A DNA stretch of 64,000 nucleotides from assembly GCA_026396615.1 (NCBI GenBank), contig JAPLWK010000008.1, forward strand, positions 75,817-139,816, in the 5' to 3' direction. Origin of the DNA: a candidate division WWE3 bacterium. GTDB lineage: Bacteria > Patescibacteriota > WWE3 > JAPLWK01. The notes under the pieces were generated by a model. It did no database searches. It was given only the letters and a program-made list of their open reading frames with translations, and was not told the origin of the DNA. This document shows positions 1,859 through 58,504 of this stretch, piece by piece (positions within the stretch are counted from its first letter, which is position 1; each line of letters begins with the position of its first letter). A program made the translations under genes and the position numbers.

Positions 1859-1963
1859 GTCATTCCGGCCCCAGAGCCGGAATCCAGTAAATCCGATTGT
1901 TTTTTGTTATTTGTTGTTTGTTTTTTTGAAGTTACTGGATTCCGGGTCAAGCCCGGAATGACG
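1859..1963. mobile_element. MITE-like composite. It consists of hairpin repeat type B (1859-1893, + orientation), a 38-bp T-rich spacer, and hairpin repeat type A (1931-1963, inverted)
   Basis: Two copies of the dispersed GTCATTCCGG...CCGGAATCCAGTAA repeat in inverted orientation, lying in the divergent recF/fpg promoter region. Confidence 0.4.
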
Positions 1964-2818: not shown

Positions 2819-3899
2819 AAACCTCATTCTTAAAATCCTTACCTGAAAACACTGCCGCCCGTTTCCGACATTCCTCAGACAAATAGTTTGTCGACTTAAA
2901 ATTAGACAAGACACTTTCTAAAGACGCAACAGTTGCCTCAGGAAATAATTCCCCTGTGATTCCGGGGGTAATTACCTCACTGGCCCCGCCGCCTGTAAGC
3001 GCCACTACGGGCTTACCGTACGACAAAGCCTCTACAGGCACGATCCCAAAATCCTCATCGCTGACAGGGTTTAGCAAGGCCTGGCACCCCTTGTAGAGAC
3101 CTGCTAGCTCACTATCAGACACCCGTCCTAAGAACTTGGTGGTTGGCACGGCCAAATGTTTCAGTCTGGCTAGTTCCGGCCCGCTACCCACAATCTGTAA
3201 GCTTAAGCCTAGTTTCTGGCAGGCTAAAATCGCCAAATCGAAGTTCTTATAACGCACCAATCGCCCCACGCACAGAAAATAAGGCTCAATACTGCTATTG
3301 TCTACAGAAGTAACTATCGTTTCAGAGAGCAATTTAGACGGAGGGTATGTCACAATAGAATCTCTCCTATAAAACTTATAAATCCGATCCGCCGTATTCT
3401 TTGATGGCGCCAGCAGAATGTTTGGTCGCTGAGCGGCCGAGTAATCCCAAACCCTTAAATAATTGTCGACGATACTGAGGATTGGCTTCCAGAACCAGTT
3501 CGACCGTTTGTTCGTCTCCGTTTCGTAGCCATACAGAAAACGCGGTGGAGTGTGAATGTAGCTAACGTGTAACTGCTTTGAAGTAGTGATAACCCCTTTG
3601 GCAAAGTTGGCAGTATCGGAAATGACCACATCATAGGCCGACAGATCCAAGCCTTCAAAATATAACGGCCAAAAGAGGGTAAAGTACTTAAAAATATGAC
3701 GAATTAAAGGGATTCTAGAAGCCGACGAGACCCGAATATCCCAGGATGACGAGGGGAACGAGGCTTCAAGGCGTTTATCAAAGATAGTGGTGTACACCGG
3801 CGCCTGCGGGTACAGTTCGTGCAGCGCTCGCAGCACCTGCTCTGCCCCACCGTCTTGAATTAAAAAATCGTGAATTAGAGCTACTTTAGGGTTTGTCAT
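2763..3899 (-). CDS. glycosyltransferase family 4 (GT-B, RfaG/WcaC-like)
   Basis: The N-terminus KVALIHDFLIQDGGAEQV and the C-terminal EDFGIVPVEALSYGKPVVA (E-x7-E region) are typical of GT4. Confidence 0.8.
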   Translation of the reverse strand: MTNPKVALIHDFLIQDGGAEQVLRALHELYPQAPVYTTIFDKRLEASFPSSSWDIRVSSASRIPLIRHIFKYFTLFWPLYFEGLDLSAYDVVISDTANFAKGVITTSKQLHVSYIHTPPRFLYGYETETNKRSNWFWKPILSIVDNYLRVWDYSAAQRPNILLAPSKNTADRIYKFYRRDSIVTYPPSKLLSETIVTSVDNSSIEPYFLCVGRLVRYKNFDLAILACQKLGLSLQIVGSGPELARLKHLAVPTTKFLGRVSDSELAGLYKGCQALLNPVSDEDFGIVPVEALSYGKPVVALTGGGASEVITPGITGELFPEATVASLESVLSNFKSTNYLSEECRKRAAVFSGKDFKNEVFKVVADNWGKNTSRDHQP

Positions 3900-3904
3900 A
3901 AATA

Positions 3905-3998
<94 letters not shown>

Positions 3999-4009
3999 AG
4001 GTATGTTTT

Positions 4010-4069
4010 GTCATTCCGGGCTTGACCCGGAATCTAGTAACTGGATTCCGGCTCCGGGGCCGGAATGAC
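4010..4069. mobile_element. two hairpin repeats (type A in + orientation, type B inverted) abutting or overlapping, forming a 60-bp palindromic composite
   Basis: gtcattccgggcttgacccggaatctagtaactggattccggctccggggccggaatgaca. It lies immediately 5' of the tRNA-Ser gene. Confidence 0.4.
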
Positions 4070-9718: not shown

Positions 9719-10273
9719 ATGTTTGTATGGTTGGGTTCGGCTTTTATTACAGCTTACCTACCAAGCAATACACAAAAGGCGCAAATAAAAAGCCTAGGTT
9801 TAGTATTGGTCGTTATGGCGGGTGCGGCCTTTGCCAATATAATTAGTAGTAAGTTAACTAAAATAAACTGGAAAATATTAAGCCCAATCTTACTAATTTT
9901 TCTAGGAGGCTATTTTATTAATACAACTTTCCCAATTTATAGAATACTTAACCAAAAGACCCCAGATAAAATCAGTTACATCTCAAAAAATAGATTAATG
10001 GCTTTAGATTGGTTAGACAAACACGAAAATAACAAAAGTAGAACGGTATTATCAACCGAAAAAGAAATGGGCAGCTATGTACCCCTAATAACAAATTTAA
10101 CTACATTAAATAGTTATGCATTATTTGAAAGTGCGGAAATTATAAAGGACAATTCTAAAGTTATACCCGATTATGTAATCGAAATTAGCGGCGGTAACAT
10201 TATAAAATCTACGGAATATGGGGCAGTTTACCAAAATCCGGAGGTAACTATTTATGAAAATACCAAAATTTAA
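9719..10273 (+). CDS. membrane protein with C-terminal extracytoplasmic domain (possible C-terminal part of the preceding GT-C-like gene)
   Basis: Two TM helices followed by a soluble domain. Its size and position suggest a frameshifted continuation of 8763..9683. Confidence 0.3.
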   Translation: MFVWLGSAFITAYLPSNTQKAQIKSLGLVLVVMAGAAFANIISSKLTKINWKILSPILLIFLGGYFINTTFPIYRILNQKTPDKISYISKNRLMALDWLDKHENNKSRTVLSTEKEMGSYVPLITNLTTLNSYALFESAEIIKDNSKVIPDYVIEISGGNIIKSTEYGAVYQNPEVTIYENTKI

Positions 10274-11813
10274 TAAACCAATCTTTACTGAGGCACTGTG
10301 GATTGGTTTAACAGCAGCCATTTTATTTTTCGTATTTCTTAATATAGCTCTTAAATACTTAGATCCCGATTTAGGTTGGCATTTAGTAATTGCCCAAAAT
10401 TTCTTAGAAACCGGCTTCTTCCCCAGTGTAGATGTGTACTCTTTTGCTATTAAAAACTTTCCTTGGGTAGTGTTTGAATTTCACCTCTCTAACCTAATGT
10501 ACTTAATTTATAAGCAAATTAGTTATTTAGGGTTAGCGGTAGTTTTTTCGGGAATAACAGCCGCCTTACTCACTTTACATATTTATTTAACTCGCCAAAT
10601 ATTTAAAATACGCCTACTAACTATCCTAATTTTCGGTGGCGTTTTAATAATCGGCACCTTTAGCACTTTTGGGATTCGCACCCCGGTATTTTCGATTTGG
10701 GCCAACATAATCCTTTTTTGGTTGCTGTGGGATCTACTAAAAGACAAACCTCGATTACTTACTAGATTATCGTTGATGGGACTATTTTTAATCTGGGCTA
10801 ATTGCCACCCCAGCTTTTTTGTAGGAGTGGCCACTTTAGTGATTGCGGTAATCTATAAAACTCTGCGCCGCAAAACAGTTAGTTTAGCCGACATTACCAC
10901 CGTCATCACTACCGGCTTAATAACACTGCTGAACCCTTACGGCATTCGACTATGGTGGGAAGCTCTGGGGCACTTTTTGCCCACTAGTAGCTTAATGCAT
11001 ACATATATTAGAGAGTGGCAATCGGTGTTTAAAATGTTTCCAGTGGATTTACTGGGGCTAATTACTCTCTTTTTCGTACTGCTGGTGTTTATAGAAAATT
11101 TTAAGAAACTGTGGAAAAACTACCCCGCTCATTTTATCGTCGCTGTAATCTTTTTAGTGGGTACTTTTATGGCCACTCGTAATATTGGCCTCTTAGCTAT
11201 TTGGGCCTTACCCTTAGTCTTAGCTACCCTAAACAATAGTGTAAAGGTGGCTCTTCCGCCAAAACATTATCATTTAATTAGGGTGCTCCAAGGCGCCCTA
11301 GCCATTTTAATAGTTAGTGAATTTGTCAGCTTATTAGCAATTAATTGGTGCACTAACTTTCTGCAAACTGGGGCCAGTGGCTACCCTTCAAGTAAAGCTT
11401 TAGACGAAGTTAAGCAATTAACTAATCAGGGTGAGTGGTTATACAATCCTTATGATTGGGGTGGCTATTTAGACTGGCACTTTAAAGGGACTCCTCAAGT
11501 TTTTATTGACGGACGAATGCCCGCCACCTGGTTTAATAAAGATAATTTCCCGTTTAAAGATTATGTGGCCATGTATAGCACTAAGGGTAAAGGGGAAATT
11601 TTCGCCAAGTATGATTTTACGGTGGCGATAGTTAAACCAACTATAGCGTCCAGTCTTGACCCTTTTAATCGATTTTTAATTGGGGGAGCGGCGGGCGAAG
11701 CTAAACTGAACGCCGAGGCGGAAAGATTATCCGTAAAAACTTGGCTGGAGGGGCAACCGAATTGGAAAAAAGTTTATAAAGATGACACAGCTGTAATATT
11801 TGTCAAAAAGTAA
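10254..11813 (+). CDS. polytopic membrane protein, GT-C-fold-like (ArnT/PMT/YfhO-like) with C-terminal soluble domain
   Basis: About 12 TM helices, then an approximately 150-aa hydrophilic C-terminal domain (YNPYDWGGYLDWHFKG...). Confidence 0.4.
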   Translation: MKIPKFNKPIFTEALWIGLTAAILFFVFLNIALKYLDPDLGWHLVIAQNFLETGFFPSVDVYSFAIKNFPWVVFEFHLSNLMYLIYKQISYLGLAVVFSGITAALLTLHIYLTRQIFKIRLLTILIFGGVLIIGTFSTFGIRTPVFSIWANIILFWLLWDLLKDKPRLLTRLSLMGLFLIWANCHPSFFVGVATLVIAVIYKTLRRKTVSLADITTVITTGLITLLNPYGIRLWWEALGHFLPTSSLMHTYIREWQSVFKMFPVDLLGLITLFFVLLVFIENFKKLWKNYPAHFIVAVIFLVGTFMATRNIGLLAIWALPLVLATLNNSVKVALPPKHYHLIRVLQGALAILIVSEFVSLLAINWCTNFLQTGASGYPSSKALDEVKQLTNQGEWLYNPYDWGGYLDWHFKGTPQVFIDGRMPATWFNKDNFPFKDYVAMYSTKGKGEIFAKYDFTVAIVKPTIASSLDPFNRFLIGGAAGEAKLNAEAERLSVKTWLEGQPNWKKVYKDDTAVIFVKK

Positions 11814-11905
11814 TCGATATTCGGATACATTCGGAATCAATTCGGATTAATGAACGCTCATTTCATTCGCTATCAATTTCACTAGGCTTTCAATTGTAGG
11901 ATGTC

Positions 11906-13633
11906 TCACTTCACTTCAAACCAAGTGCTGTAAATCCAATCTTTCTCCGGGCTACGAACGTTAAAGGCGTAGCGAAAGCGGATGCCAGTGATCTCACCAC
12001 TATCGATTGACCGGTTGGACCCTTCGGCTTTAACCCATTTGACTCGGGAACTGCTGCCTCCCATCGTCTCCACAGACACTGATTTAACGGCTTCGATTGG
12101 CGTCTTCCCCTCACTCTTCAGCATCGAGCGGACATCTTCCATTGACGTTTTGCTGCTGACCTTATCCAAATCCGACGGACTTAAAAGAGCGGTATTTAAA
12201 ACGTCACCCATATCAATTTGTCCAATCTGGGTCCCCTCAGAACTATCCTTTTTTGGCGGAAAACTTTGGGTTTTCCAGGAATTACTCATGAGGGCACTCC
12301 AATTATTGTAGGGCGACATGGTGTCGTTAAAGTCTGTTGACCGAAGATAGGGATAAGCATCGTTAATAGAGCCTGAATCTTTATACTGCCGCGTATCGCT
12401 ATTAAAAGCAAACGACGGTGTGTCGCCAATAGAATCGGTGTGCGGCCCGGAAGTCGAGAAGTAAAAAGCCCGAATTGGTTCGCCTGAATAAACCATAATT
12501 TTACCCCGAGTTTTATCGGCGGCGTCTTTTTTGGCCGTCCCGCCAATGTAAACTTGACAAGCTTGAGTGGTACAAATGGAACTGTTATTTATGGCATAAG
12601 TGCGAGCGGCAATGATTTGGACCCGATCCATGACGGCGGCAGCATCACTATTAATTGTCCGCCACACCGGATCGGTTTCGCCAATTCCGGCTAAATACTC
12701 GTCCTCAAAGTTCATGCTTCCATAACCCTCGACGTTAATCGAGTCTTTAGAGACGGTCTTAAAGTCGATATCGTGATAATAAAATTTAAGAATCCTTTCT
12801 TCGTCCCAACCTTGGGCGGCCAACATAAAAGCGCCCCATTGGCTCATGCCCACTCCATGCTCCGTCCCGTAACCACCAATGCGCCACGAGGGAGCACCGG
12901 AGGCATTTGGAGTATTTGGGCGGCCGGACCCAGATTCTTTAATATTCTGAACGGCCGACTGCTGCCAACTCATTTGACTGCTAATCTCGGCACTTAAGTC
13001 CGACAGTTTCTGACCAAGAATGGCTTCCTGAGCGGCATATTGTGACAAACGAGCCGAGGCTTCATTCGCCTGATTTTTAAGTTTGCTTTGCAAATTAGCT
13101 AAGGCTTGTTGTTGAGCCAGCAATTGATTTTTAATGGACAGGGCTTCCGCTTTGTTGGCCTCAAAATTAGTGATCTCGTCGTTAAGATTGGTAACAGTGG
13201 CGCGAACGTTGTTTAAAGTGACTTTAAAATAGATTAGACGCTCCGGCCATTCCTGCCAGGAATTAGAAGAAAATAAGAGGACCAAAGGAATGACTTCGCC
13301 CCGTTTGTAATAATCCAAAACCGCCGCGTCTCGCAAAGTTTCCTGTATTGCAATTTTGCCTTTGCGATCAGCCAAACTGGCTTCAATTTGAGTTAAAGTT
13401 GACAGCGTGGCCGTAATTTTAGCTTGCACTGCCGCAATTTGAGAGTCGGTTAAGCCCAGTTTGGTAGACAAATCTTTTAGTTCCACCGCCAAGTTGTCTT
13501 TATCGGATTTGAGTTTAGACAGTTGAGTGGCGGTACTTTGATAATCATCCAAAATTGAAGCCGAGGCAACATTTCCGTTGACAGAAAGCGCCAGAGACAC
13601 TAGGATGATGGGAATGAAGAGAAACCACCGCAT
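11906..13633 (-). CDS. SpoIID/LytB-domain protein with signal peptide and long coiled-coil region
   Basis: GYGTEHGVGMSQWGAFMLAAQGWDEERILKFYY is the SpoIID/LytB signature. The N-terminus has EnvC-like coiled coils. The likely true start is MRWFLFIPIILVSLALS (about 13633); the longer ORF extension to 13804 was rejected. Confidence 0.55.
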   Translation of the reverse strand: MRWFLFIPIILVSLALSVNGNVASASILDDYQSTATQLSKLKSDKDNLAVELKDLSTKLGLTDSQIAAVQAKITATLSTLTQIEASLADRKGKIAIQETLRDAAVLDYYKRGEVIPLVLLFSSNSWQEWPERLIYFKVTLNNVRATVTNLNDEITNFEANKAEALSIKNQLLAQQQALANLQSKLKNQANEASARLSQYAAQEAILGQKLSDLSAEISSQMSWQQSAVQNIKESGSGRPNTPNASGAPSWRIGGYGTEHGVGMSQWGAFMLAAQGWDEERILKFYYHDIDFKTVSKDSINVEGYGSMNFEDEYLAGIGETDPVWRTINSDAAAVMDRVQIIAARTYAINNSSICTTQACQVYIGGTAKKDAADKTRGKIMVYSGEPIRAFYFSTSGPHTDSIGDTPSFAFNSDTRQYKDSGSINDAYPYLRSTDFNDTMSPYNNWSALMSNSWKTQSFPPKKDSSEGTQIGQIDMGDVLNTALLSPSDLDKVSSKTSMEDVRSMLKSEGKTPIEAVKSVSVETMGGSSSRVKWVKAEGSNRSIDSGEITGIRFRYAFNVRSPEKDWIYSTWFEVK

Positions 13634-13967
13634 TGGTTTGATTATACCAACTATTTTGGCTTCCCAATTTTTACTGGCTCCCAAAGTTTTGGCCGCGGAT
13701 ATTGCCACTAACGACATCGGTAGTTTTGTGGGCGGTATCGCAGTCGCGGCAGTGGGTATTGGCGGTGGTGTCGCTCTACTTTTAATAATTATTGGTGGCC
13801 TCATGTTTTCTTTAAGTCGTGGCGATCAGGATAAAGTTCAAAAGGCTAAAGATATGATCACCAGCGCTATTGCAGGGCTGCTCTTAATAATCTTCGCGAC
13901 TGTAATTCTTCGAGTCATCGGCGTTGATATCTTTGGTTTACCGGGAATGCCAGTCTTTAATTTCTAG
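13614..13967 (+). CDS. TrbC/VirB2-like pilin-family small membrane protein (paralog 1)
   Basis: Signal peptide MKRNHRIGLIIPTILASQFLLAPKVLAAD, then two hydrophobic helices separated by SRGDQDKVQKAKD. No class III prepilin motif, so this is not a type IV pilus pilin. Confidence 0.5.
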   Translation: MKRNHRIGLIIPTILASQFLLAPKVLAADIATNDIGSFVGGIAVAAVGIGGGVALLLIIIGGLMFSLSRGDQDKVQKAKDMITSAIAGLLLIIFATVILRVIGVDIFGLPGMPVFNF

Positions 13968-13969
13968 TT

Positions 13970-14920
13970 ATGAAATTTTTAAAAGTCTTTTTTTTGTGTT
14001 CGATTATCTCTGCAGCTCTAGTATTTTCAAGTCGACCTGTTTTGGCAGCTGCCGGAGACTGCGGAGCGGGCTCCTGTCCGGCTAATTATACCTGCCAAGC
14101 GACATCCAATCCGATATTTTGTTGCCCAGTTGCTACTCCGACTCTTACCGCTTGTGGCACCAGCTGCTGCGAAGTCGCTAATTGCTATCATCCGGCAATA
14201 GGTTTACCAACCTGCGTTAATACCAACACCAGTAACTTAAGCACCTGTGGAAGTAATCTCTGTGTCACACAAATTTGTTGTGATACAGGCACATTAGATA
14301 ACTGTGTGCCATTACCAGCTGCCGGTTGTAGTCAGCGTCAACGGGTAAACGATGGCTGCGATAGCGACGGCGTTACCTGTCACCTAAAGCCTACCGACGC
14401 TTCGGTCCCCGCGCGGTTCATCACCGCGGCCGGTTCTGAGTGTGGTAATCACTTATGTGACCCCGGTGAGGCGTGTGAGTTTTCGATTGTCGCCGGAGGC
14501 GTACCTTTTACCTGCGATGGCAATGGCGGCACATCACCACTACCTGCTGGACAAACTTGCAACGCCACCTGTACACAAATTATTTCCAACGGCCAAGGTG
14601 GAGCGATTAGCGGCAATCCCTCAACGTATCATCTTGACACCACTGCCATCGGGGTCACCCCTAAATTCACAACGCTTGGTGGCATTACTTCTTTTGTCGT
14701 TAAGACAATGGTCGGGTTGGCTGGCGTGGCTTTTATGATCATGTTTTTGATCGGCGCCTTTAAGTTTGTGACTTCCCAAGGCGATAAAGCGGCTGTAGAG
14801 AGTGCCAAAGGCACGATTACCAGTGCTTTTATTGGCGTGGCCTTAACGGCGGCCTTATTTGCTATAATGACGCTGCTACAGAACGTTTTTGGCGTTTCGT
14901 TACTAAACATCACGACCTAA
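13970..14920 (+). CDS. fusion protein: signal peptide, a Cys-rich extracellular domain of about 200 aa (about 40 Cys), and a C-terminal TrbC/VirB2-like pilin domain (paralog 2)
   Basis: The C-terminal 75 aa (VGLAGVAFMIMFLIGAFKFVTSQGDKAAVESAKGTITSAFIGVALTAALFAIMTLLQNVFG) are homologous to the neighbouring pilin paralogs. Confidence 0.5.
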   Translation: MKFLKVFFLCSIISAALVFSSRPVLAAAGDCGAGSCPANYTCQATSNPIFCCPVATPTLTACGTSCCEVANCYHPAIGLPTCVNTNTSNLSTCGSNLCVTQICCDTGTLDNCVPLPAAGCSQRQRVNDGCDSDGVTCHLKPTDASVPARFITAAGSECGNHLCDPGEACEFSIVAGGVPFTCDGNGGTSPLPAGQTCNATCTQIISNGQGGAISGNPSTYHLDTTAIGVTPKFTTLGGITSFVVKTMVGLAGVAFMIMFLIGAFKFVTSQGDKAAVESAKGTITSAFIGVALTAALFAIMTLLQNVFGVSLLNITT

Positions 14921-14923
14921 GTT

Positions 14924-15238
14924 ATGAACTTAATTACTAAAGCCTACGCTGTTGTGATTGATCCTGGAATGATTGGGGTTAAAAATATTACCCCGGAATC
15001 GGGAATTATGATGGTCGTTAAAGCTCTAATTGGCGCTTGCGGCTTTGGCGCTTTTATTTTTTTAATAATCGGTGGCGTCAAATTTGTGGTCTCAGCGGGA
15101 GACAAAGGGGCCGTGGAAAGTGCTAAAAAGACAATTACCTTCGCCGTCATCGGCCTGGTCCTGGCCGCGGCCGCTTTTGCAATTGCCTCCTTGTTACAAA
15201 ACGTATTAGGGATTAATATTCTAAATGTAACTATCTAA
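14924..15238 (+). CDS. TrbC/VirB2-like pilin-family protein (paralog 3)
   Basis: ALIGACGFGAFIFLIIGGVKFVVSAGDKGAVESAKKTITFAVIGLVLAAAAFAIASLLQNVLGI. Confidence 0.5.
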   Translation: MNLITKAYAVVIDPGMIGVKNITPESGIMMVVKALIGACGFGAFIFLIIGGVKFVVSAGDKGAVESAKKTITFAVIGLVLAAAAFAIASLLQNVLGINILNVTI

Positions 15239-15262
15239 AAACAGGAGGTGACTTAATTTATT

Positions 15263-15620
15263 ATGTTTTTAATCAAAGATCTATTAGTAAAAGCTGCGTA
15301 TGCGGCACCAATTGATATTTTTAAAACTGCAGACGCTACCAGCGTTGACTTAAAAATTCAGAATGTTCAGACAGTAGTTTCTACCGGTATTAAAGCCCTA
15401 ATCGGAGCCGCCGGTTTACTGTTCTTTGTGATGTTAGTCTGGGGTGGTATTCAATTCGTCACTTCTGGCGGCGATAAAGCTCAAGCTACCGCCGCTAAAG
15501 ACCGAATTACTCACGCTTTATTGGCATCGTAATTGTGGCAGCCGCTTTCGCTATTGCCACGTTGCTCCAAAACGTCTTAGGAATTGGAATTACCGATTAC
15601 AACATTAGTAATGCTTACTA
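15263..15620 (+). pseudogene. TrbC/VirB2-like pilin paralog 4, disrupted by a 1-nt deletion frameshift near 15518. It is a near-identical tandem duplicate of paralog 5
   Basis: nt 15401-15588 are identical to 15775-15963 except that a single C is missing. The ORF stops at 15532, but the out-of-frame downstream sequence encodes the conserved C-terminal helix (IVIVAAAFAIATLLQNVLGIG). A good RBS (AGGAGGTGA) is present. Confidence 0.5.
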
Positions 15621-15642
15621 AGGGAGGTGAATTGTTATAATT

Positions 15643-15996
15643 ATGAATTTTTTAAATATAATCTCTGGTAAAGCTTTCGCTGAAAGTGTATTTGTAACCG
15701 GAAATAAAGCCACCGCTGTAGGCTTAAATATCTCCGACACCGGACTTCTGGTGTCCACAGCTATCAAAGCCTTAATCGGAGCCGCCGGTTTACTGTTCTT
15801 TGTGATGTTAGTCTGGGGTGGTATTCAATTCGTCACTTCTGGCGGCGATAAAGCTCAAGCTACCGCCGCTAAAGACCGAATTACTCACGCTCTTATTGGC
15901 ATCGTAATTGTGGCAGCCGCTTTCGCTATTGCCACGTTGCTCCAAAACGTCTTAGGAATTGGAGTTACCAACTTCACGATCCAACAGGCTTACTAA
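15643..15996 (+). CDS. TrbC/VirB2-like pilin-family protein (paralog 5)
   Basis: ALIGAAGLLFFVMLVWGGIQFVTSGGDKAQATAAKDRITHALIGIVIVAAAFAIATLLQNVLGIG. RBS GGGAGGTGA. Confidence 0.55.
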   Translation: MNFLNIISGKAFAESVFVTGNKATAVGLNISDTGLLVSTAIKALIGAAGLLFFVMLVWGGIQFVTSGGDKAQATAAKDRITHALIGIVIVAAAFAIATLLQNVLGIGVTNFTIQQAY

Positions 15997-16059
15997 TCAA
16001 ACGTTTCGCCCGGTAGCTAGGCAATCTAGCTACCGAAGCATCGTTAGATTTTTTAGTAT

Positions 16060-16368
16060 ATGGCTATATGCACAATTGGTGATCCACCCACTATAGATCA
16101 ACTGGGCCCCTGCTTTGTAAGCATTATTAAGCTAGTGGTAGGTTTTGCTGGGGTGGCTACCGTAATTGTGTTTTTAATTGGCACCGTTCAGTACATCACT
16201 TCCCGCGGTGACAAAGAAGGCGTTACCGCGGCTAAGGGTACCCTCACCTACGCCATTATTGGCCTGGTGGTGGTCGCCGTCGCCTTTGGGCTAGTCAGTC
16301 TTATTGACCGAACTATTCTTGGTGGAACCAACACTCTTCTCAACTTCGACGTTCCCAGTATTCACTAA
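16060..16368 (+). CDS. TrbC/VirB2-like pilin-family protein (paralog 6, most divergent)
   Basis: LVVGFAGVATVIVFLIGTVQYITSRGDKEGVTAAKGTLTYAIIGLVVVAVAFGLVSLI has the same architecture as the other paralogs. Confidence 0.45.
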   Translation: MAICTIGDPPTIDQLGPCFVSIIKLVVGFAGVATVIVFLIGTVQYITSRGDKEGVTAAKGTLTYAIIGLVVVAVAFGLVSLIDRTILGGTNTLLNFDVPSIH

Positions 16369-16377
16369 ACTCCATTT

Positions 16378-16409
16378 GTCATTCCGGGCTTGACCCGGAA
16401 TCCAGTAAC
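16378..16409 (+). repeat. hairpin repeat type A (GTCATTCCGGGCTTGACCCGGAATCCAGTAAC), solo copy
   Basis: Exact consensus copy 10 nt after the stop codon of pilin paralog 6. Confidence 0.8.
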
Positions 16410-16444: not shown

Positions 16445-19400
16445 ATGCCCAAGCGAGTGTCGATAATATTGGAATTTTCATTATTATTAATTGCAATTAT
16501 TATTCTAAAACCAACCCCCGCCTTTGCCGCTGCTCCGGATCCCGTGGCCTGCTTCACCAACGAAGATCCCACCTTTGGGGGCGTTACTCGAGGCAATTCT
16601 ACCAGCTTTAATGTTCTATTGAACATGAAAATCACCGATTTCTACTGCGCCGCTCCTAACTGGCCCGTCGCTTCCGTTCTTGAAGGCAACGATGCCACGC
16701 ATATGGATGTTGGCACTAACTGCCCGGCGGCCAATGATCCGGCAGTCCTGGCTAAAATCGTGGCCCAACTAAAAAGCCAAATCGAGAATGTTTCCTTAAT
16801 CCCAGGTGCCATGACCAATCCCAGCGTTCTTAGTCAAGCCAATTTTCAGGGCGATACTACTTGGACGTTACTGCGACCGCCTAGTGATATTACTCCCAAC
16901 AAAGTCAACAATATTACCGGCCAAACCGCTCTTAATACAGTGGGCACTTCCAAGATTTACTACGCCGCCTGCACCAACGTGCCCGAGGTGGGACCGGTCT
17001 GGTTTTCAATGGCTAAAGACGTCCCAGCTCCTCAGGGCAAAGTCCTACCCTCGTATCGTAAAGAAGCCGCCGCCTCTTTTTACCTGCAAAATTATTTGAC
17101 CCAAGTGCCGGGTGACGATCCAATCATTAAAGAGCTTAAAAAGGAAACGCCGGTTTTTAATGACAATACTACCTCCGACCTTCTTCCCTTTCCAAAACTT
17201 AGCTTTCAGTTAGCCTCTCGAAAAATTGCCGAAAGCGATTATTTAATTTACTGGAAACTATGCGCCAAAAAGGGACCTGTGGACACAGTCAAAAAAAATA
17301 TTTCATGCCAACTTAGTAATTTTATTACTGACATCGAGCACACCGATGTTAGCGGTGCGAAAAGTCTGGTCGCCGAAATTCCTAACGATGCTTGGGGCAA
17401 GAACACCGGCGATGACTTCACTTGCTTTACCACCGGCGATTTCGACACCCATCCTCTTAAAGTGACAGCAACCCCAGGCAGCAGCTACCCGCTTTCCGTC
17501 AAACTCATTGGCACGCCGATTGACGAAAACGTTTGTCAGAATAATGCGCAGCTCGATAGTGCCGTTTATCTCGACCCCAATAATCAATTGGCATACAGCG
17601 GTTATTCGACTACCCCTCACGTGGCCTTCTGTAATGGCGTCAACTCAACAGTCGTCAACAATACCAGTCAGAGCGTGTGTATTGGTGGAGACTGTCATGT
17701 GACGGCGATTGCCAAATTTTTTAACGACGCTTCCGCTAAAATCAGTGCTGTTTTTGACAATTGGATTCATCAACTCACTCCTACTACTACTTGGGGTGAC
17801 GTAAATCCTGATTCCGCAGCGTCCTGTCAAAAGACAGCGGAAGATATTTGTAATGGCCCCAAAGGTCAAGGCGCTTCTGATAATCTAATCATCACCCAGT
17901 CCACGGACTTCAATTGGATTCAGGTGGATCCGGCCGCCAAACCGGTCGACAAAATAATTAAGGTTTTCGTTACCAACAATAGTAAAAGGGATGCCACCCT
18001 TAATGTTTACAGCCAAGTTCTGGTCACTAGCGAAAGATCGCTCCCGGTAACAATTACCACCTCCAATGCCGCGGGAAGCCAAAATAGTCCTCAAATTGCC
18101 GTTTACGGAAACACTATTTACTGGAATGGCCTGATCGTCCCCGCAAATGGCGTCACTACTGAACTTGATTATCACGTTAGCGTGACTGCAATAAACTCCG
18201 GAACTATTTCAGCTACTTCTGGTGTCAGTGGTGATATTTATAAAACTGTCACTTTTTATAGTGACACTAACTTTGCTTGTCAGAAAGTCGCTGGAGTTGG
18301 TACAAATTCCTGTGATCCTAAAAATAATGACGCCGACTGTAGCGCTAAGCACCTAGCATGTAATAACGGCACCGGTATCTGTGAGTTAGTAAACGGCGCC
18401 GGTACTAATACTTGTTTAACTAATTCCCAATGTAAAGACGACAAGCGACATCTTGACTGTGTAGGTAACGCCTGTGTGGCTGTGCAGGGGACTGGGGTAG
18501 ATAATTGTAATCGTTTGGCGAGTTGTAATACTACTACCCATACCGGTTGTAGCCTCGATTCGGCAAACCCAACTTGCGCGAGTTTTACTTATGTTGGTCC
18601 TAATAAACCAACCAATAATTGCAGTATCAGTGGTAATAGCGGATGCGACGGTGCTAACTCCTCAAGTTTTCATATGGAGTGCAGCAGCGTCGGTAAACCC
18701 GAGCCTAGAGATGTTTCGCAGCCCGAATCGACTTCCACGCAGTCCGGCTTAATTACCGTTTCCAGTACCAACGCTTCTGACGATGAAAACTTATGTGTGA
18801 AGATTGCGAAAATCGTCTGCTATATAACCACTATGCCGTCCCTAATGAGCGGTTACTCCTACACCCAACCTCTAGAGGTTAAAGTTTATCCGTACCCGGA
18901 GGCTTCATATACTCAAGGCATAGACACGCAAGCCGCCAGCCCTAAGGATGGTCTTTTTAATCTCTTCTACGCGCCTGGACAAGATAACAAAATCGCCGCT
19001 TTAAGCGAAAAGGATGTTGACGCCAAAGCCGGATTAAATACTAATATAAACGGTAACAGCCCCGCCACCGACGCTTCGATTAAAGGCAGCCAACAGACCC
19101 TGTCGCCTTTGAAGTATCTGCAGAAAAATGCCCTCTGCCCTCCCGGTCAAGAGGCAACCTGCCCCGATATGCCCCAAACTGTCAACGAGGCGATGCCAAC
19201 TGACGGGAGCATTCCACCTCCCGATACTCCACCGCTACCAGGACCAGTTGTTCCCGGCGCCAACGTTGGCTTCAGCGTTCCAGCTTGCACCGGAGGCAAT
19301 GACGTGGCCATTTCCCAGCGTTCGACCTACACCCAAAATATATTAGCCCAAGCCGCAGCAGCCGAGGGCGTTCCAGTGAGTTTATTAACAGCTATTTTGA

Positions 19401-19852
19401 CCGTCGAAAGCGGTAACGACGCTCTAATCTCCGCCAACGGGACCGCCCCCGTCTGCGTTACTTCTGTTTGTAGTGCTCGCGGCTGGTTTCAAATCACTAG
19501 CGGCTATCAAAATGTGGATTGTAGTGAGTGCAGCGCTTGGTGCTGTGATTACAATAATGACAGCATTAAAGAAGCGGTGTGCTTAGAATCTAGAAGCGCT
19601 TTTGATCCCCCCGGAAATTTTGACCTCTGCAACCCAGCCCAGTCCGCCATCGCCGCTGCTAAAGTTTTAAAGGCTAAGATGGGTGTCGATGGTACACACG
19701 TGTGGACGATCGATGATGCCTGTGTAGCTGCTGCTCGCTACTTTGGAGCGGATAGCTCAGCCTGTGAAACCAGTGGTGGTTATTATCCGCGCCTTGCTAA
19801 CTGTACTTATGGCGGATTTGTAAAAAAGTTTGTGAATATTACCGGACTTTAG
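16445..19852 (+). CDS. giant secreted Cys-rich protein (1135 aa) with C-terminal lytic transglycosylase (SLT, VirB1-like) domain
   Basis: Signal peptide. Three tandem G-x-G-T-N-x-C-x5-6-C modules lie at aa about 620-690. A Pro-rich linker (PPPDTPPLPGPVVPG) follows. The C-terminal LTAILTVESGNDA...GWFQITSGYQ matches the SLT catalytic E-S motif and the GLMQ-type motif. Confidence 0.55.
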   Translation: MPKRVSIILEFSLLLIAIIILKPTPAFAAAPDPVACFTNEDPTFGGVTRGNSTSFNVLLNMKITDFYCAAPNWPVASVLEGNDATHMDVGTNCPAANDPAVLAKIVAQLKSQIENVSLIPGAMTNPSVLSQANFQGDTTWTLLRPPSDITPNKVNNITGQTALNTVGTSKIYYAACTNVPEVGPVWFSMAKDVPAPQGKVLPSYRKEAAASFYLQNYLTQVPGDDPIIKELKKETPVFNDNTTSDLLPFPKLSFQLASRKIAESDYLIYWKLCAKKGPVDTVKKNISCQLSNFITDIEHTDVSGAKSLVAEIPNDAWGKNTGDDFTCFTTGDFDTHPLKVTATPGSSYPLSVKLIGTPIDENVCQNNAQLDSAVYLDPNNQLAYSGYSTTPHVAFCNGVNSTVVNNTSQSVCIGGDCHVTAIAKFFNDASAKISAVFDNWIHQLTPTTTWGDVNPDSAASCQKTAEDICNGPKGQGASDNLIITQSTDFNWIQVDPAAKPVDKIIKVFVTNNSKRDATLNVYSQVLVTSERSLPVTITTSNAAGSQNSPQIAVYGNTIYWNGLIVPANGVTTELDYHVSVTAINSGTISATSGVSGDIYKTVTFYSDTNFACQKVAGVGTNSCDPKNNDADCSAKHLACNNGTGICELVNGAGTNTCLTNSQCKDDKRHLDCVGNACVAVQGTGVDNCNRLASCNTTTHTGCSLDSANPTCASFTYVGPNKPTNNCSISGNSGCDGANSSSFHMECSSVGKPEPRDVSQPESTSTQSGLITVSSTNASDDENLCVKIAKIVCYITTMPSLMSGYSYTQPLEVKVYPYPEASYTQGIDTQAASPKDGLFNLFYAPGQDNKIAALSEKDVDAKAGLNTNINGNSPATDASIKGSQQTLSPLKYLQKNALCPPGQEATCPDMPQTVNEAMPTDGSIPPPDTPPLPGPVVPGANVGFSVPACTGGNDVAISQRSTYTQNILAQAAAAEGVPVSLLTAILTVESGNDALISANGTAPVCVTSVCSARGWFQITSGYQNVDCSECSAWCCDYNNDSIKEAVCLESRSAFDPPGNFDLCNPAQSAIAAAKVLKAKMGVDGTHVWTIDDACVAAARYFGADSSACETSGGYYPRLANCTYGGFVKKFVNITGL

Positions 19853-27722: not shown

Positions 27723-27754
27723 GTCATTCCGGGCTTGACCCGGAATCCAGTAAC
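27723..27754 (+). repeat. hairpin repeat type A, solo copy
   Basis: Exact consensus 25 nt after the stop of the 27213 gene. Confidence 0.8.
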
Positions 27755-27960: not shown

Positions 27961-28330
27961 GGGGACGACGGGTCTAGACTAGATTCTGTCGATTACCTGT
28001 TGCAAGCCCAGCCAAGTTAACTGGTAAAACTGACTTAAAACATAATTGCTGACAAAACAGCTACTGTTCCCGCTTACGCCTACGCTAACGTGTATGCTTA
28101 AGTTTTCGAACCGTTCTTAAGAGTGATTTTTCCTAGGTGATCGCTTAAGGGCGTAATAAAATCTGGGATCGGGGGTTCTACCGGTGAGTAGAACTTTTTA
28201 GGCATTATTCACCACTGGCTTACTTTGTTTGTTGATTTAAAGGAGTAAGTTTTATCTAAAAATCATCTATGCTTGTAGATACGGGAGTCAAAGCTTTAGG
28301 ACGAGGGTTCAACTCCCTCCGTCTCCACCA
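27961..28330 (+). ncRNA. ssrA: tmRNA (SsrA), 370 nt
   Basis: The 5' GGGGACG pairs with the 3' CGUCUCC-A-CCA, including the G3:U70 alanine identity pair. The 3' GGACGAGGGTTCAACTCCCTCCGTCTCCACCA is a tRNA-like T-arm and acceptor. The internal tag ORF is gct gac aaa aca gct act gtt ccc gct tac gcc tac gct aac gtg tat gct taa (ADKTATVPAYAYANVYA*). Confidence 0.85.
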
Positions 28331-30750: not shown

Positions 30751-30961
30751 GTCATTCCGGCCCCGGAGCCGGAATCCAGTAACTTCCGATTTTAGTTATC
30801 AGTTCTCGGTTGTCGGTTGTCAGAATTTAGTTGCCCAGTTTTCAGTTTGTCGGTCAAATTGACTGATTAACAGACAACTGACAAACCAACATCTGAAAAT
30901 AGAAAACTGAGAACAGATAACTTGATCGATTTACTGGATTCCGGGTCAAGCCCGGAATGAC
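30751..30961. mobile_element. MITE-like composite of 211 bp. It consists of hairpin repeat type B (30751-30783, + orientation), a 147-bp palindromic cargo (family-2 element), and hairpin repeat type A (30931-30961, inverted)
   Basis: The terminal inverted repeats are the dispersed hairpin repeat. The cargo is about 80% identical to 43581-43716. Confidence 0.45.
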
Positions 30962-30970
30962 AATATTATT

Positions 30971-31471
30971 GTGTCATTTCTAATATCACTACTTTCAACA
31001 ATCTCGACCCCAGCCTACGCCATCTGCCCCGTCTGCGTCGTGGCTGTGGGCGCCGGCATTGGACTCTCTCGCTATCTAGGTGTTGACGATACTATCACCG
31101 GACTCTGGGTCGGAGCTCTAATCGTTTCAATGATTGTAACCACGCTAGACTTTCTAAAGAAACGTCACTGGGTCTTTAAAGGCGTCGGAATCGTCATCAC
31201 TCTTGGATATTACCTTCTCGTCATCATCCCACTCTACCTAAAAGATATCATTGGCCACCCTTTTAATAGGATTTTAGGAATCGACAAATTAGTTTTCGGA
31301 ATTATCTTTGGGACTATGGCACTGATTGTTGGACCCAAAATCCACGCTTGGCTTAAAAGTCGACATGGCGATAAATCATATTTCCCCTTTCAGAAGGTCG
31401 CTGTCCCCGTCTCGCTCTTAATAATCTTAAGTGGTATATTTTATATATTCACTAAATTCTATGGAAGATAA
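30971..31471 (+). CDS. hypothetical membrane protein (4-5 TM)
   Basis: Hydrophobic profile only. Confidence 0.35.
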   Translation: MSFLISLLSTISTPAYAICPVCVVAVGAGIGLSRYLGVDDTITGLWVGALIVSMIVTTLDFLKKRHWVFKGVGIVITLGYYLLVIIPLYLKDIIGHPFNRILGIDKLVFGIIFGTMALIVGPKIHAWLKSRHGDKSYFPFQKVAVPVSLLIILSGIFYIFTKFYGR

Positions 31472-31988
31472 AAATATTGACGCCTTAATTAAAAAAATAA
31501 ACGATGCTAAAAAGCAAAATCCTCTGGACCTGTCGTCCGATGAGGATCTGTCGATTGCCATCATGAACCTGGTAAGTATAGAAGAACATCTATTCTTTAC
31601 CGCCGAAAAAACTAATCAACCCAATTATTATGACCTCTTAAACGAGGTTCGCGAAATCAGAAAGTCGCTCCTAGCCAAGATTGTGACCAATCCTAAGGGA
31701 GAGGAATGGTGCATCAGCAAACATCTGCTGGCCTCCTCGATGCGGCTGATGGAAGTTGGTACCAAGCAGCTTTCTAAAGGTAATAAAGATGAGGCCTACG
31801 ACCTATTTCGCAAAGCCTACGACCTGTATTCCATGTTTTGGGGGATTAATTTAAAAGTGATTCAACCCTCAGAAGTAAAGAAAATTGACGAAACGGCCAT
31901 TAGCAAATCCGACCCCACCCCATCTGCCGGTTTCACCGGCAAACTCGGCGACCTCGTCCGCAGAGCCATTAATTGCTGTATCGAGTAA
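31461..31988 (+). CDS. hypothetical cytoplasmic protein
   Basis: The likely start is MEDKNIDALIKK. No recognizable domain. Confidence 0.3.
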   Translation: MEDKNIDALIKKINDAKKQNPLDLSSDEDLSIAIMNLVSIEEHLFFTAEKTNQPNYYDLLNEVREIRKSLLAKIVTNPKGEEWCISKHLLASSMRLMEVGTKQLSKGNKDEAYDLFRKAYDLYSMFWGINLKVIQPSEVKKIDETAISKSDPTPSAGFTGKLGDLVRRAINCCIE

Positions 31989-32004: not shown

Positions 32005-32036
32005 GTCATTCCGGGCTTGACCCGGAATCCAGTAAC
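32005..32036 (+). repeat. hairpin repeat type A, solo copy
   Basis: Exact consensus 17 nt after the stop at 31988. It is followed by the GCATGC-apex palindrome at 32049-32076. Confidence 0.8.
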
Positions 32037-35097: not shown

Positions 35098-35129
35098 GTC
35101 ATTCCGGGCTTGACCCGGAATCCAGTAAC
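35098..35129 (+). repeat. hairpin repeat type A, solo copy
   Basis: Exact consensus 9 nt after the rpoD stop. Confidence 0.8.
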
Positions 35130-40561: not shown

Positions 40562-40593
40562 GTCATTCCGGGCTTGACCCGGAATCCAGTAAA
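40562..40593 (+). repeat. hairpin repeat type A, solo copy, followed by a CCAAT-rich imperfect palindrome (40594-40725)
   Basis: gtcattccgggcttgacccggaatccagtaaat. Downstream arms AATTACCAAT..CCAATCAATT / AATTGATTGG..ATTGGTAATT. Confidence 0.75.
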
Positions 40594-43536: not shown

Positions 43537-43580
43537 AAGGGCTTCAGAATAGCGCAGAATCGGGATTATGGCAAGTGTTC

Positions 43581-43716
43581 GATTAGTTAGTTATCAGTTC
43601 TCGGTTGTCTGTTGTCAGCATTTAGTTAATCGGTTTTCAGTTTGTCGGTCTAAATAACCGGTAAACAGAAAACTGGCAAACTAATATCTGAAAACCGAAA
43701 ACTGAGAACCGAAAAC
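43581..43716. repeat. family-2 palindromic element (about 135 bp), second copy. It is internally inverted-repeat with short direct repeats (CGGTTGTC, AAAACCGAAAACTGAGAACCGAAAAC)
   Basis: About 80% identical to 30787-30920. It sits upstream of the nusA start. Confidence 0.6.
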
Positions 43717-43745
43717 TAAAAATTAAGGGCCCTCAGGCCCTTAAA

Positions 43746-48285: not shown

Positions 48286-49641
48286 ATGCCAACAGACATT
48301 CTTTGGAAAAACATTTTAAGTGAGATAGAAAAGGAAATCACCAGTAGCTTCTTTAAAGCTTTCTTAACTAAAACAAAGTTAATTAACTATGAAAATGGCG
48401 TGCTTAACGTTACCTGTGCCAGCGAGCAGGCTCGCTTTCAAATTGAAAATAAATACTTGGGAATTATTAAAAGTGTGGCGGATAAGTTAACCCAAAGCAA
48501 CACTAAAATTGTAATGACTGTGGAAGAAGCTGCTAAAAAAGCGGTCACAGAAGCACCACTACTTGATCAAATTGCCAAAGAAAAAGCCCACGACCCGGTA
48601 TTCACTTTAAATAGTAATCTCTCCACAAGCTACACCTTTGATAGCTTTGTAGTGGGTCCTAACAACCGCTTGGCTTCGGCCGTTGCTCATGCTATTGCCG
48701 ACAACCCCGGTACCGTCTACAATCCCTTCTTCATTTATTCCGGCGTTGGCTTGGGAAAAACGCATTTGATGCAAGCAATTGGCAACGAGATTTTAAAAAA
48801 CAAAAAGGGTGGCCGAGTGGTTTACACCACCGGAGAATCATTTACCAATGAGATGGTAGAAGCGATTCAAAATTCAAAAAGACAATATAGTAGCGTTTCT
48901 AAATTTAGAGATAAATATCGCAATGTTGATGCTTTACTCATAGATGACGTCCAGTTCATTGCTGGTAGGGAGACGACCCAGGAAGAGTTCTTCCACACTT
49001 TTAACGCTCTTTATTTAAATCATAAGCAGATTATTTTAACGTCCGATCGGCCTCCCAAAGACATTGCTCGCCTCGAAGAACGCCTCTCGTCCCGTTTCTT
49101 AAGTGGCATGACGGCCGATATGCAAGCCCCCGATTTAGACATGCGCTCGGCTATTCTGCGTCAAAAACGTGACCAATTAAAATTACCAATTACCAATGAG
49201 GTGACTGATTTTATCGCCGAACGAGTTCTTAGTAATGTGCGGGAACTGGAAGGGGCTTTGCTTAAGGTCAGTGCAGTCGGTCAAGCTTCAGGATCAGCGG
49301 TGACGATTGACCAAGCGGCTGAAATCTTGGGGCAAGTAGCCCGCGAGCAACGCAAAAATTATACTTCTACCGACATCATCAAAGCCGTCGCCAGTTATTA
49401 CAACGTTAAATTAGTGGATCTTAAAGGGCCCAGACGCCAAGCCGAAGTCGTCGTGCCTCGGCAAATTGCCATGTACCTGGTTCGCTCTTTAACTCAAATG
49501 CCGGTCATTACCCTCGGCGAAATCTTTGGCGGTCGTGATCACAGCACAGTCATTCACGCCACGGATAAAATAGCGTTAGCGGTTAAAACCGATACCAAAA
49601 TGAATCAAGATATTATTAATATTAAGCAAGGTTTATTGTAG
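48286..49641 (+). CDS. dnaA: chromosomal replication initiator DnaA
   Basis: Walker A GVGLGKTHLMQAIG, box VII, and the C-terminal DNA-binding domain ...IAMYLVR...GGRDHSTVIHA. Confidence 0.9.
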   Translation: MPTDILWKNILSEIEKEITSSFFKAFLTKTKLINYENGVLNVTCASEQARFQIENKYLGIIKSVADKLTQSNTKIVMTVEEAAKKAVTEAPLLDQIAKEKAHDPVFTLNSNLSTSYTFDSFVVGPNNRLASAVAHAIADNPGTVYNPFFIYSGVGLGKTHLMQAIGNEILKNKKGGRVVYTTGESFTNEMVEAIQNSKRQYSSVSKFRDKYRNVDALLIDDVQFIAGRETTQEEFFHTFNALYLNHKQIILTSDRPPKDIARLEERLSSRFLSGMTADMQAPDLDMRSAILRQKRDQLKLPITNEVTDFIAERVLSNVRELEGALLKVSAVGQASGSAVTIDQAAEILGQVAREQRKNYTSTDIIKAVASYYNVKLVDLKGPRRQAEVVVPRQIAMYLVRSLTQMPVITLGEIFGGRDHSTVIHATDKIALAVKTDTKMNQDIINIKQGLL

Positions 49642-56292: not shown

Positions 56293-56988
56293 TTAAGCAA
56301 TCATCGGCTCCACAATGGGGGCGGTATATTCACTGGTATCCTTTATTTTCTGCTCCCTGGAACTGGCGGGGTTATAAATATCATAAAAAAGCGACACCAA
56401 TTCTTCGGTGTTTAATTGCCGAGCTTTAACCCCCATTTTAGAAAATTCTTTAATAATATGATCTCTTTTGGGGATTAATTGGCTAACCGACTTCTTTAAA
56501 ATATATTCGGTATCTACATAAACTCTTTTAGTGGTGACGCCAAATAAGTTTAGCAGCCAATCGAAGGGGCCACTCCCTGTCGCCGACGTGACAATTCCGT
56601 AAGGAATAATCACGTAGAATTTTTTATCTAAGACATCATTTTGGGTAATTAATTCTTCAATAAATTTTCGATACCCAATTACCTGGCCTCGTAACTTTTC
56701 ATTAGCCTGGCCCTCTTCCGCTTTTGTGAGTATCTCCAAATAATTAGATACGTCCATTCTTTTACTGCGAATCACGATTTGAATCGGGAAAGATAGAGAA
56801 TTTAATAGACCGGCGTAAGCGGCAATCATACTATCTTGCTCGCGTTCAGAAAGGAGGTCAAAGTTAACGGCGGTGGTTTGAATCACTATGGCCGCCCCGC
56901 CGGTTTTTAGAATCAAAGTATCATTCTTAATATCCGCGATATCAATGTGTTGCTGAGTGGAAGCATTTATGGGAGTGTTATATTTCAT
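56293..56988 (-). CDS. N-terminal domain of the VirB4/TraE-like ATPase, encoded as a separate ORF in the same frame
   Basis: DIADIKNDTLILKTGGAAIVIQTTAVNFDLLSEREQDSMIAAYAGLLNSL...KKFYVIIPYG parallels the first 200 aa of Gram-positive VirB4 homologs (PINFxLxSExEQ ... RFFVIxxY). Confidence 0.55.
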   Translation of the reverse strand: MKYNTPINASTQQHIDIADIKNDTLILKTGGAAIVIQTTAVNFDLLSEREQDSMIAAYAGLLNSLSFPIQIVIRSKRMDVSNYLEILTKAEEGQANEKLRGQVIGYRKFIEELITQNDVLDKKFYVIIPYGIVTSATGSGPFDWLLNLFGVTTKRVYVDTEYILKKSVSQLIPKRDHIIKEFSKMGVKARQLNTEELVSLFYDIYNPASSREQKIKDTSEYTAPIVEPMIA

Positions 56989-58405: not shown

Positions 58406-58504
58406 GTCATTCCGGCCCCGGAGCCGGAATCTAGTAACAGATCAAAATTATAAATTAAAAATTTATTGTATATTTACTGGATTCCGGGTCAAGCCCGGAA
58501 TGAC
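58406..58504. mobile_element. MITE-like composite. It consists of hairpin repeat type B (58406-58438, + orientation), a 35-bp AT-rich spacer, and hairpin repeat type A (58474-58504, inverted)
   Basis: Located between the dnaJ stop and the PrgI-like start. The dnaJ stop codon lies inside the right-hand repeat. Confidence 0.4.

Follow-up and report, generated by a model that had tools for sequence, protein, structure and literature searches.

Two neighbouring genes of a VirB2-like pilin array, here called pil4 and pil5, form, as far as their sequences indicate, a mosaic with two sharp borders and not a young duplicate. The array lies in a 64,000-nt stretch of DNA (the window) from a contig of 213,525 bp, and the MAG concerned is labelled as a candidate division WWE3 bacterium (Patescibacteria). 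A central block of the two genes is identical except for a single C that is missing from pil4, and is bordered on either side by sequence in which the genes are only 51-60% identical. Gene conversion probably explains this identical-core mosaic; that judgement leaves aside whether the missing C is a real deletion, which is weighed separately below. The process is a known one, textbook conversion between tandem paralogs, and it acts here in a known gene family, so that the locus provides a new example and no new mechanism.

The pilin array and its surroundings

Six consecutive ORFs on the plus strand, at ~13600-16368, match PF18895 (T4SS_pilin, VirB2-like). The Pfam gathering score of this family, 26.6 bits, is passed by five of the six genes, and pil2, with 25.4 bits, falls narrowly under it. 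The first gene, pil1 (13614-13967, +), encodes a VirB2-like pilin of 117 aa with a score of 39.2 bits. It was called as a gene on the Logan contig L035, where positions 3564-3917 correspond to 13614-13967 of the window, and is 67% identical to a 98-aa gene of L001, one of the closest lineages for which long contigs are available. The second gene, pil2 (13970-14920, +), encodes a protein of 316 aa composed of a Cys-rich N-terminal extension and a C-terminal pilin domain. NCBI names its product 'pilin', its orthologue in L001 is a 245-aa gene, and it may be a pilin with an additional exposed domain. pil3 (14924-15238, +) encodes a 104-aa pilin (31.9 bits) that is 51% identical to a 103-aa gene of L001; the exact pil3 protein is also present on L035. 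pil4 as assembled (NT141_02055; 15263-15532, +) is an ORF of 89 aa that scores 29.3 bits and from which an early stop removes most of helix 2. The ORF starts with ATG and is preceded by a ribosome-binding site, GGAGGTGA, at 15245-15252. When one base is restored, the repaired translation of the full gene body (15263-15621, +) is a 119-aa pilin. pil5 (NT141_02060, MCX6783830.1; 15643-15996, +) encodes an intact pilin of 117 aa (41.1 bits). The final gene, pil6 (16060-16368, +), encodes a 102-aa pilin (38.0 bits) that is 62% identical to a 101-aa gene of L001. A promoter and terminator scan of the array gave counts that are not clearly above the shuffled expectation, and the 'terminator' called inside both the pil4 and pil5 cores is simply core sequence common to the two genes.

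On one side of the array lies a SpoIID-domain gene transcribed divergently from it, and on the other, downstream, an ORF of 1135 aa. The latter (16445-19852, +) is situated directly 3' of the array and is without a Pfam match. Its C-terminus carries an ES...GWFQI motif, which by eye recalls lytic transglycosylases (VirB1-like), and its orthologue in L001 gives a weak match to PF01345 (DUF11/CLIPPER). A VirB4-type ATPase (TraG P-loop, AAA_10) at 54406-56289 (-) and a PrgI-domain protein at 56985-58403 (-) are located in the same window. These two genes lie within 10 kb of dnaA (48286-49641, +), and the pilin array is ~38 kb away. The layout agrees with the published observation that T4SS genes of Patescibacteria are often close to the origin of replication (PMC12102498).

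Several other features of the window were recorded. A 28-nt palindromic element, GTCATTCCGGGCTTGACCCGGAATCCAG, is present nine times, eight of the copies being exact and the ninth having a single mismatch, whereas chance would give 0. The copies are located at 1935-1962 (-), 4010-4037 (+), 16378-16405 (+), 27723-27750 (+), 30934-30961 (-), 32005-32032 (+), 35098-35125 (+), 40562-40589 (+) and 58477-58504 (-); the copy examined, that at 16378-16405, lies 10 nt past the pil6 stop. The element may be a REP-like or terminator-like genomic repeat. A direct repeat of 138 nt with 84% identity is formed by 30787-30922 and 43580-43717, and the segment 30750-30962 is a 74% imperfect inverted repeat of itself. 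We also note a tmRNA gene at 27961-28330 (+), with the tag peptide ADKTATVPAYAYANVYA, that adjoins a tRNA-Arg.

Identical cores and diverged termini

The exact-match runs delimit a core of 190 nt in pil4 (15399-15588, +), on which the codon statistics and a permutation test also bear, and a core of 191 nt in pil5 (15773-15963, +), with the C at 15892 included. Positions 15399-15517 (119 nt) equal 15773-15891 at an offset of 374, and positions 15518-15588 (71 nt) equal 15893-15963 at an offset of 375. The cores differ only by the C at 15892, for which pil4 has no equivalent base between 15517 and 15518 (CACGCT-TTATTGG in pil4 versus CACGCTCTTATTGG in pil5). A preliminary description of this DNA had reported identity over about 188 bp apart from one missing C. 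This is borne out, with the block beginning 2 nt further 5' than was given there, and the diverged ends, GIGITDYNISNAY versus GIGVTNFTIQQAY, had been quoted correctly. The block is the strongest repeat of the 64-kb window. Self-comparison of 34 other pilin loci yielded no comparable identical block, and the blocks shared by paralog pairs in those loci reach at most 88% identity.

Identities were determined region by region after repaired pil4 had been aligned by codon with pil5; the two proteins are ~72% identical. The N-terminal part (43 aligned codons and 4 gapped codons) has 51% nucleotide identity, with different third positions in 27/43 codons, and 11 of the 17 codons that specify the same amino acid differ. 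The core, comprising 63 codons, is 100% identical over 189 aligned nt and has no difference at any of its 49 synonymous sites. Identity drops to 60% in the C-terminal tail, where third positions differ in 5 of 10 codons; the tails read ITDYNISNAY in pil4 and VTNFTIQQAY in pil5. The bases that border the pil4 core are also paralog-specific, 15398 being C in pil4 and T in pil5, and 15589 being A in pil4 and G in pil5. Different third positions thus amount to 0/63 in the core versus 32/53 in the flanks, whose synonymous sites are saturated. The flanks of pil4 and pil5 share 20/53 aa, the same as either gene shares with orthologues from other lineages. The longest identical run obtained in 20,000 permutations was at most 51 nt, compared with the 191 observed, which was reached in 0/20,000. 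Orthologous cores with 67-83% protein identity have just 63-68% nucleotide identity and differ at 38-42 of the 63 third positions, and the probability of 0/63 differences at this orthologue rate is ~5e-26. Because orthologous cores vary at third positions to this extent, amino-acid constraint is insufficient to account for the identical core.

Contigs assembled from related reads were compared with the window. L035 (SRR20698641) is 100% identical to window positions 10051-15428 and ends exactly k-1 = 30 nt inside the block, as expected where a read graph with k = 31 branches at a true repeat. A further Logan contig from the same run, L037, is 100% identical to the window, and L038 (SRR20698644) is 99.94% identical.

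The closest lineages with long contigs (L001-L006, L007/L022, L018 and L019) possess one main pilin between the pil3-like and pil6-like genes, in the order SpoIID, pil1, pil2, pil3, one main pilin, pil6 and large ORF. The best match of both pil4 and pil5 in L001 is one and the same 118-aa gene (57% and 55%, respectively). Since the relatives are single-copy and both genes have the same best-matching gene, pil4 and pil5 represent a lineage-specific duplication. By this comparison they are co-orthologues of one 'main' VirB2-like pilin gene that was duplicated at an older date within the lineage. Exact-protein look-ups with pil4, pil5, pil6 and the 1135-aa neighbour retrieved no further contig. 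Repaired full-length pil4 is absent from the protein collection, as are the partial pil4 and partial pil6 of the sister strain described below. Scans with a pilin alignment recovered distant relatives only, with at most 48% identity among genome contigs and at most 74% over a partial match among metagenome contigs; the source MAG was not among the matches.

A sister strain is represented by L036, a 900-nt ENA contig (ERZ27248956, k141_262276; MEGAHIT) that was traced via a cluster look-up through a 98%-identical pil5 variant (P0042) and is 93.75% identical to the window over 896 nt. L036 contains the 3' 213 nt of pil4, the 22-nt spacer, which is the same as in the window, pil5 and the start of pil6. 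Four-way comparison of both genes in the two strains reveals that all 12 tail differences between pil4 and pil5 are fixed by paralog and that none separates the strains. The occurrence in L036 of the pair with the same tails makes the tandem pair older than the strain split. The L036 cores differ at 19/180 sites, which fall in three patches. Both genes of the window read C at 15469 and 15493, positions at which both genes of L036 read T; two sites that vary by strain rather than by paralog are a classic sign of concerted evolution. Within the patch 15517-15549, window pil4 is of the pil5 type, and L036 pil4 has its own sequence. Core similarity between pil4 and pil5 is 89-100% in both strains, far above the flank similarity. 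Over the 3' 213 nt covered by L036, its pil4 departs from window pil4 at 13 sites, every one of them synonymous, and the C-terminal 70 aa of the two proteins agree throughout, which means that pil4 is normally constrained. Judged by these substitutions, pil4 is a normally constrained, functional gene and the frameshift is specific to the window assembly.

The preliminary description had interpreted the locus as a very recent 374-bp tandem duplication. The tandem pair with a period of 374/375 nt was confirmed, but the recency of its duplication was not. Duplication of a 374-bp unit in the very recent past, with the ends diverging later, would be in line with this period, with the identical central 190 nt, and with the single gene of more distant relatives where the window genome has two. 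Identity is nevertheless only 51-60% over about half of the unit, where synonymous sites are saturated and codon indels occur, and an unchanged core cannot be of the same age as the rest of such a unit. The flanks, at 20/53 aa, are no closer to each other than to other-lineage orthologues, and a strain with ~6% divergence has this pair too, complete with its paralog-specific tails. Such a recent origin is extremely improbable and in practice refuted. The duplication cannot be set aside as an assembly artefact either, because the same pair, together with the 12 paralog-specific tail differences, occurs in the independently assembled L036. A different account ascribes the mosaic mainly to recombination between strains, in which foreign alleles are taken up, instead of to conversion within the genome. 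Identity along the locus is indeed very uneven. Comparison of L036 652-900 with window 16060-16309 shows that identity between the strains falls to 81.5% over 16201-16309, in the second half of pil6. The pil4 tail, spacer and pil5 N-terminus together, by contrast, are 98.9% identical. This unevenness within the pilin array suggests recombination between strains, and the patches unique to L036 pil4 or pil5 could have been imported. However, import does not make the paralogs of one genome identical unless the donor is the paralog. Standing against it as well are the core similarity of 89-100% in both strains, far above that of the flanks, and the two sites that co-vary by strain in both copies. 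As the main source of the mosaic, between-strain recombination is unlikely; certain patches could stem from other strains and not from intragenomic conversion.

Segmental conversion of the central block, which had been raised in the preliminary description, is favoured by the contrast of the tract with its flanks and by the concerted sites of L036. The similarity of the tract exceeds what protein constraint explains, variants are shared within each of the two strains, and both copies existed before the event. The sequence comparisons indicate concerted evolution of the cores by conversion in each of the two lineages, with complete homogenisation in the window strain. We infer the recombination mechanism from the mosaic, and two strains, with L036 covering only the 3' 213 nt of pil4, do not fix the direction of single patches. 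As the source is a short-read metagenome assembly, the perfect identity may reflect merged near-identical variants, and the true cores are perhaps just at least 95% identical.

Under gene conversion, the following course of events may be envisaged. pil4 and pil5 would have been duplicated long ago, and their N-terminal third and last 10 codons would by now be saturated with differences. Recurrent non-reciprocal homologous recombination between the tandem copies would have repeatedly homogenised the 190-nt core, which is predicted to encode helix 1, the SGGDK loop and helix 2, and the most recent event or events in the window strain would have led to the identical cores. Conversion is probably limited to the core because this is the sole region identical enough for heteroduplex to start and extend. 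The termini, which are modelled poorly and are probably surface-exposed, would remain paralog-specific. One C would have been lost from pil4 during or after the last conversion, and renewed conversion from pil5 could yet restore the gene.

The AlphaFold2 model of pil5 consists of helices at residues 32-65 and 70-104 with the SGGD loop between them, in keeping with the build of PF18895 proteins, in which a short leader precedes two long hydrophobic helices connected through a short polar loop. The pLDDT is 84-91 in the core and <50 at residues 1-5, 8-29 and 114-117. The converted block coincides almost exactly with the helix-loop-helix, and it is the termini that are specific to each paralog. 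Foldseek comparison of the model with the PDB returned no match with E <1.6; the Aeropyrum conjugation pilin 8dfu was 34th (E 4.5), the hairpin being too simple to discriminate. A profile search against PDB sequences returned nothing relevant. The termini of solved conjugative pilins face the filament exterior. With conversion limited to the core, the two pilins would keep an identical packing core and display different termini. pil4 as read would lose most of helix 2 and would be unable to form the hairpin. It is conceivable, though quite improbable, that the core is kept identical because both pilins co-assemble in one filament or use the same machinery, with different N- and C-terminal surfaces, and that the knock-out of a copy and its restoration by conversion act as a reversible surface switch. 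If true, this would amount to a reversible on/off switch, based on conversion, by which an episymbiotic CPR bacterium would vary its host range or its antigens.

The missing C of pil4

The C is missing between 15517 and 15518 (+), and the remainder of pil4 is shifted to the -1 frame. From its start at 15263 the ORF extends over 89 aa to a stop at 15530-15532, in agreement with the 1-nt deletion that had been said to truncate the upstream copy at 15532. The -1 frame runs onward to a stop at 15619-15621 and encodes IGIVIVAAAFAIATLLQNVLGIGITDYNISNAY, a stretch that matches the pilin profile with E 3.7e-11 (second pilin helix and tail); the out-of-frame remainder therefore still encodes the C-terminal helix, as had also been described. 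A separate C-terminal fragment starting from an internal GTG at 15535 was considered and discarded, there being no ribosome-binding site upstream by eye. L036 pil4 is in frame at the corresponding site (CAC GCC TTG ATT). The number of substitutions downstream of the shift is 0. The frameshift is younger than, or coeval with, the last conversion, because conversion would otherwise erase or copy the shift. It is positioned inside the conversion tract, at the left edge of the patch 15517-15549. This edge position is suggestive of a conversion-associated error, yet the coincidence is only about 1 in 10.

We are inclined, with some reserve, to regard the missing C as a real deletion. If the deletion is real, pil4 is a very young pseudogene; it may instead be a minority variant, or an error of assembly or of the consensus. 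That the cell holds two real and intact genes, and that the missing C, perhaps together with the perfect identity, is an assembly or consensus artefact, is possible if rather doubtful. In a mixed-strain metagenome such an artefact could stem from merged bubbles, a mis-threaded path or faulty polishing, and related strains are present in the same study (L038 from SRR20698644 at 99.94% and L036 at ~94%). The indel is the only difference inside the repeat, where assemblers err. L036 pil4 is intact and constrained, no decay is seen downstream of the shift, and the truncated 89-aa product is known from one MAG only. Against an artefact, CACGCTTTATTGG is neither of the pil5 type nor of the L036 pil4 type and so does not come from choosing between true paths; being unlike both allele types, it has to be present in the reads. 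Nor does the site fall in a long homopolymer. The indel cuts the 191-nt repeat into 119 + 71 nt, lengths below a large k-mer, which would probably have made the 213-kb contig easier to assemble. No further broken gene is evident in the 64 kb. Coding sequence makes up 91% of the window, and two long ORFs, of 1135 and 1178 aa, are uninterrupted, which argues for the absence of a general indel-error problem. No second frameshift emerged from a search of the whole 64-kb window; for the candidate pair 30971-31471 / 31431-31988 there were no family matches. The deletion could also leave the protein unaffected if a programmed -1 ribosomal frameshift at GCT TTA TTG produced full-length pil4, or could serve as an on/off state in phase variation. 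Slippage by -1 at the TTA codon would yield HALIGIV..., which is precisely what pil5 and L036 pil4 encode. C GCT TTA TTG, however, is not a slippery heptamer of the form X XXY YYZ, and no homopolymer or simple-sequence tract beyond TTT is present for either recoding or phase variation. Folding of the 121 nt that surround and follow the site is no more stable than that of shuffled sequences (z = -0.86), the same downstream sequence also follows the in-frame site of pil5, and the shift is not conserved, L036 being in frame. The probability of recoding or phase variation at this site is practically negligible.

The preliminary description had further offered the frameshifted pil4 as a gene-conversion substrate. 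A dedicated role of this kind is not sustained by the sister strain, where the copy is intact and under purifying selection, and the variable tails are not exchanged between pil4 and pil5. The deposited 89-aa protein NT141_02055 reflects either a pseudogene caused by the loss of one base or a mistake of assembly, and exact repeats of this size in MAGs merit read-level checks.

Significance and comparison with known systems

The locus provides a concrete two-strain example in which duplication and divergence do not suffice to describe how T4SS-like pilin arrays of Patescibacteria evolve. The assembly core, a helix-loop-helix, evolves in concert and the termini are gene-specific, which hints at common assembly partners and different presented surfaces. 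Within the literature searched, no paper naming both Patescibacteria and pilin refers to gene conversion.

Tandem bacterial paralogs, such as tufA/tufB and the rRNA operons, undergo concerted evolution by gene conversion. pil4 and pil5 resemble these in the sharp borders of the homogenised tract, in the sharing of variants within strains and their difference between strains, and in the possible repair of a lesion. The tract in pil4/pil5 differs in being short (190 nt) and confined to the structural core of a very small gene, and the flanks are so diverged that the two genes are clearly not redundant.

Neisseria pilE/pilS is a system in which variable segments are transferred from promoterless silent cassettes to the expression locus. 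Conversion between pilin copies, one of which is untranslatable as it stands, is the common feature. The Neisseria proteins belong to the type IV pili family, whereas pil4 and pil5 are T4SS pilins; moreover, it is the conserved core that is homogenised in pil4/pil5, and the variable tails stay fixed to their own gene (12/12 sites). Cassette variation of the pilE/pilS type was rejected for this locus, as pil4 has GGAGGTGA and an ATG start and is intact in L036, and the 12/12 tail differences are paralog-bound in both strains.

In the virB2 paralogs of Anaplasma phagocytophilum and A. marginale the hydrophobic helices are conserved and diversity is concentrated in an N-terminal region and close to the C-terminus; an antigenically variable surface structure has been proposed (PMC3556328). 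The likeness lies in multiple paralogs with conserved helices and diverse termini. This is in contrast to the setting, since Anaplasma are diderm intracellular pathogens with 8-15 copies, and to the absence from that paper of an identical core tract or a frameshifted copy (PMC3556328). The sequence relationship between the Anaplasma VirB2 proteins and pil4/pil5 is at the family level only.

Also close are the VirB2-like (PF18895 / TrbC-VirB2) arrays of Patescibacteria themselves, with which the present locus shares a one-strand tandem array of small two-helix pilin genes in a CPR genome, and an MPF-FATA-type VirB4 (54406-56289) and PrgI-domain protein near dnaA (PMC12102498). The survey of 441 such arrays reported a within-array identity with a mean of 25% and a maximum of 54% aa, and conversion is not mentioned (PMC12102498). 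pil4 and pil5 depart from these arrays in their ~72% protein identity, in their identical 190-nt core, and in the frameshift that one of the two carries.
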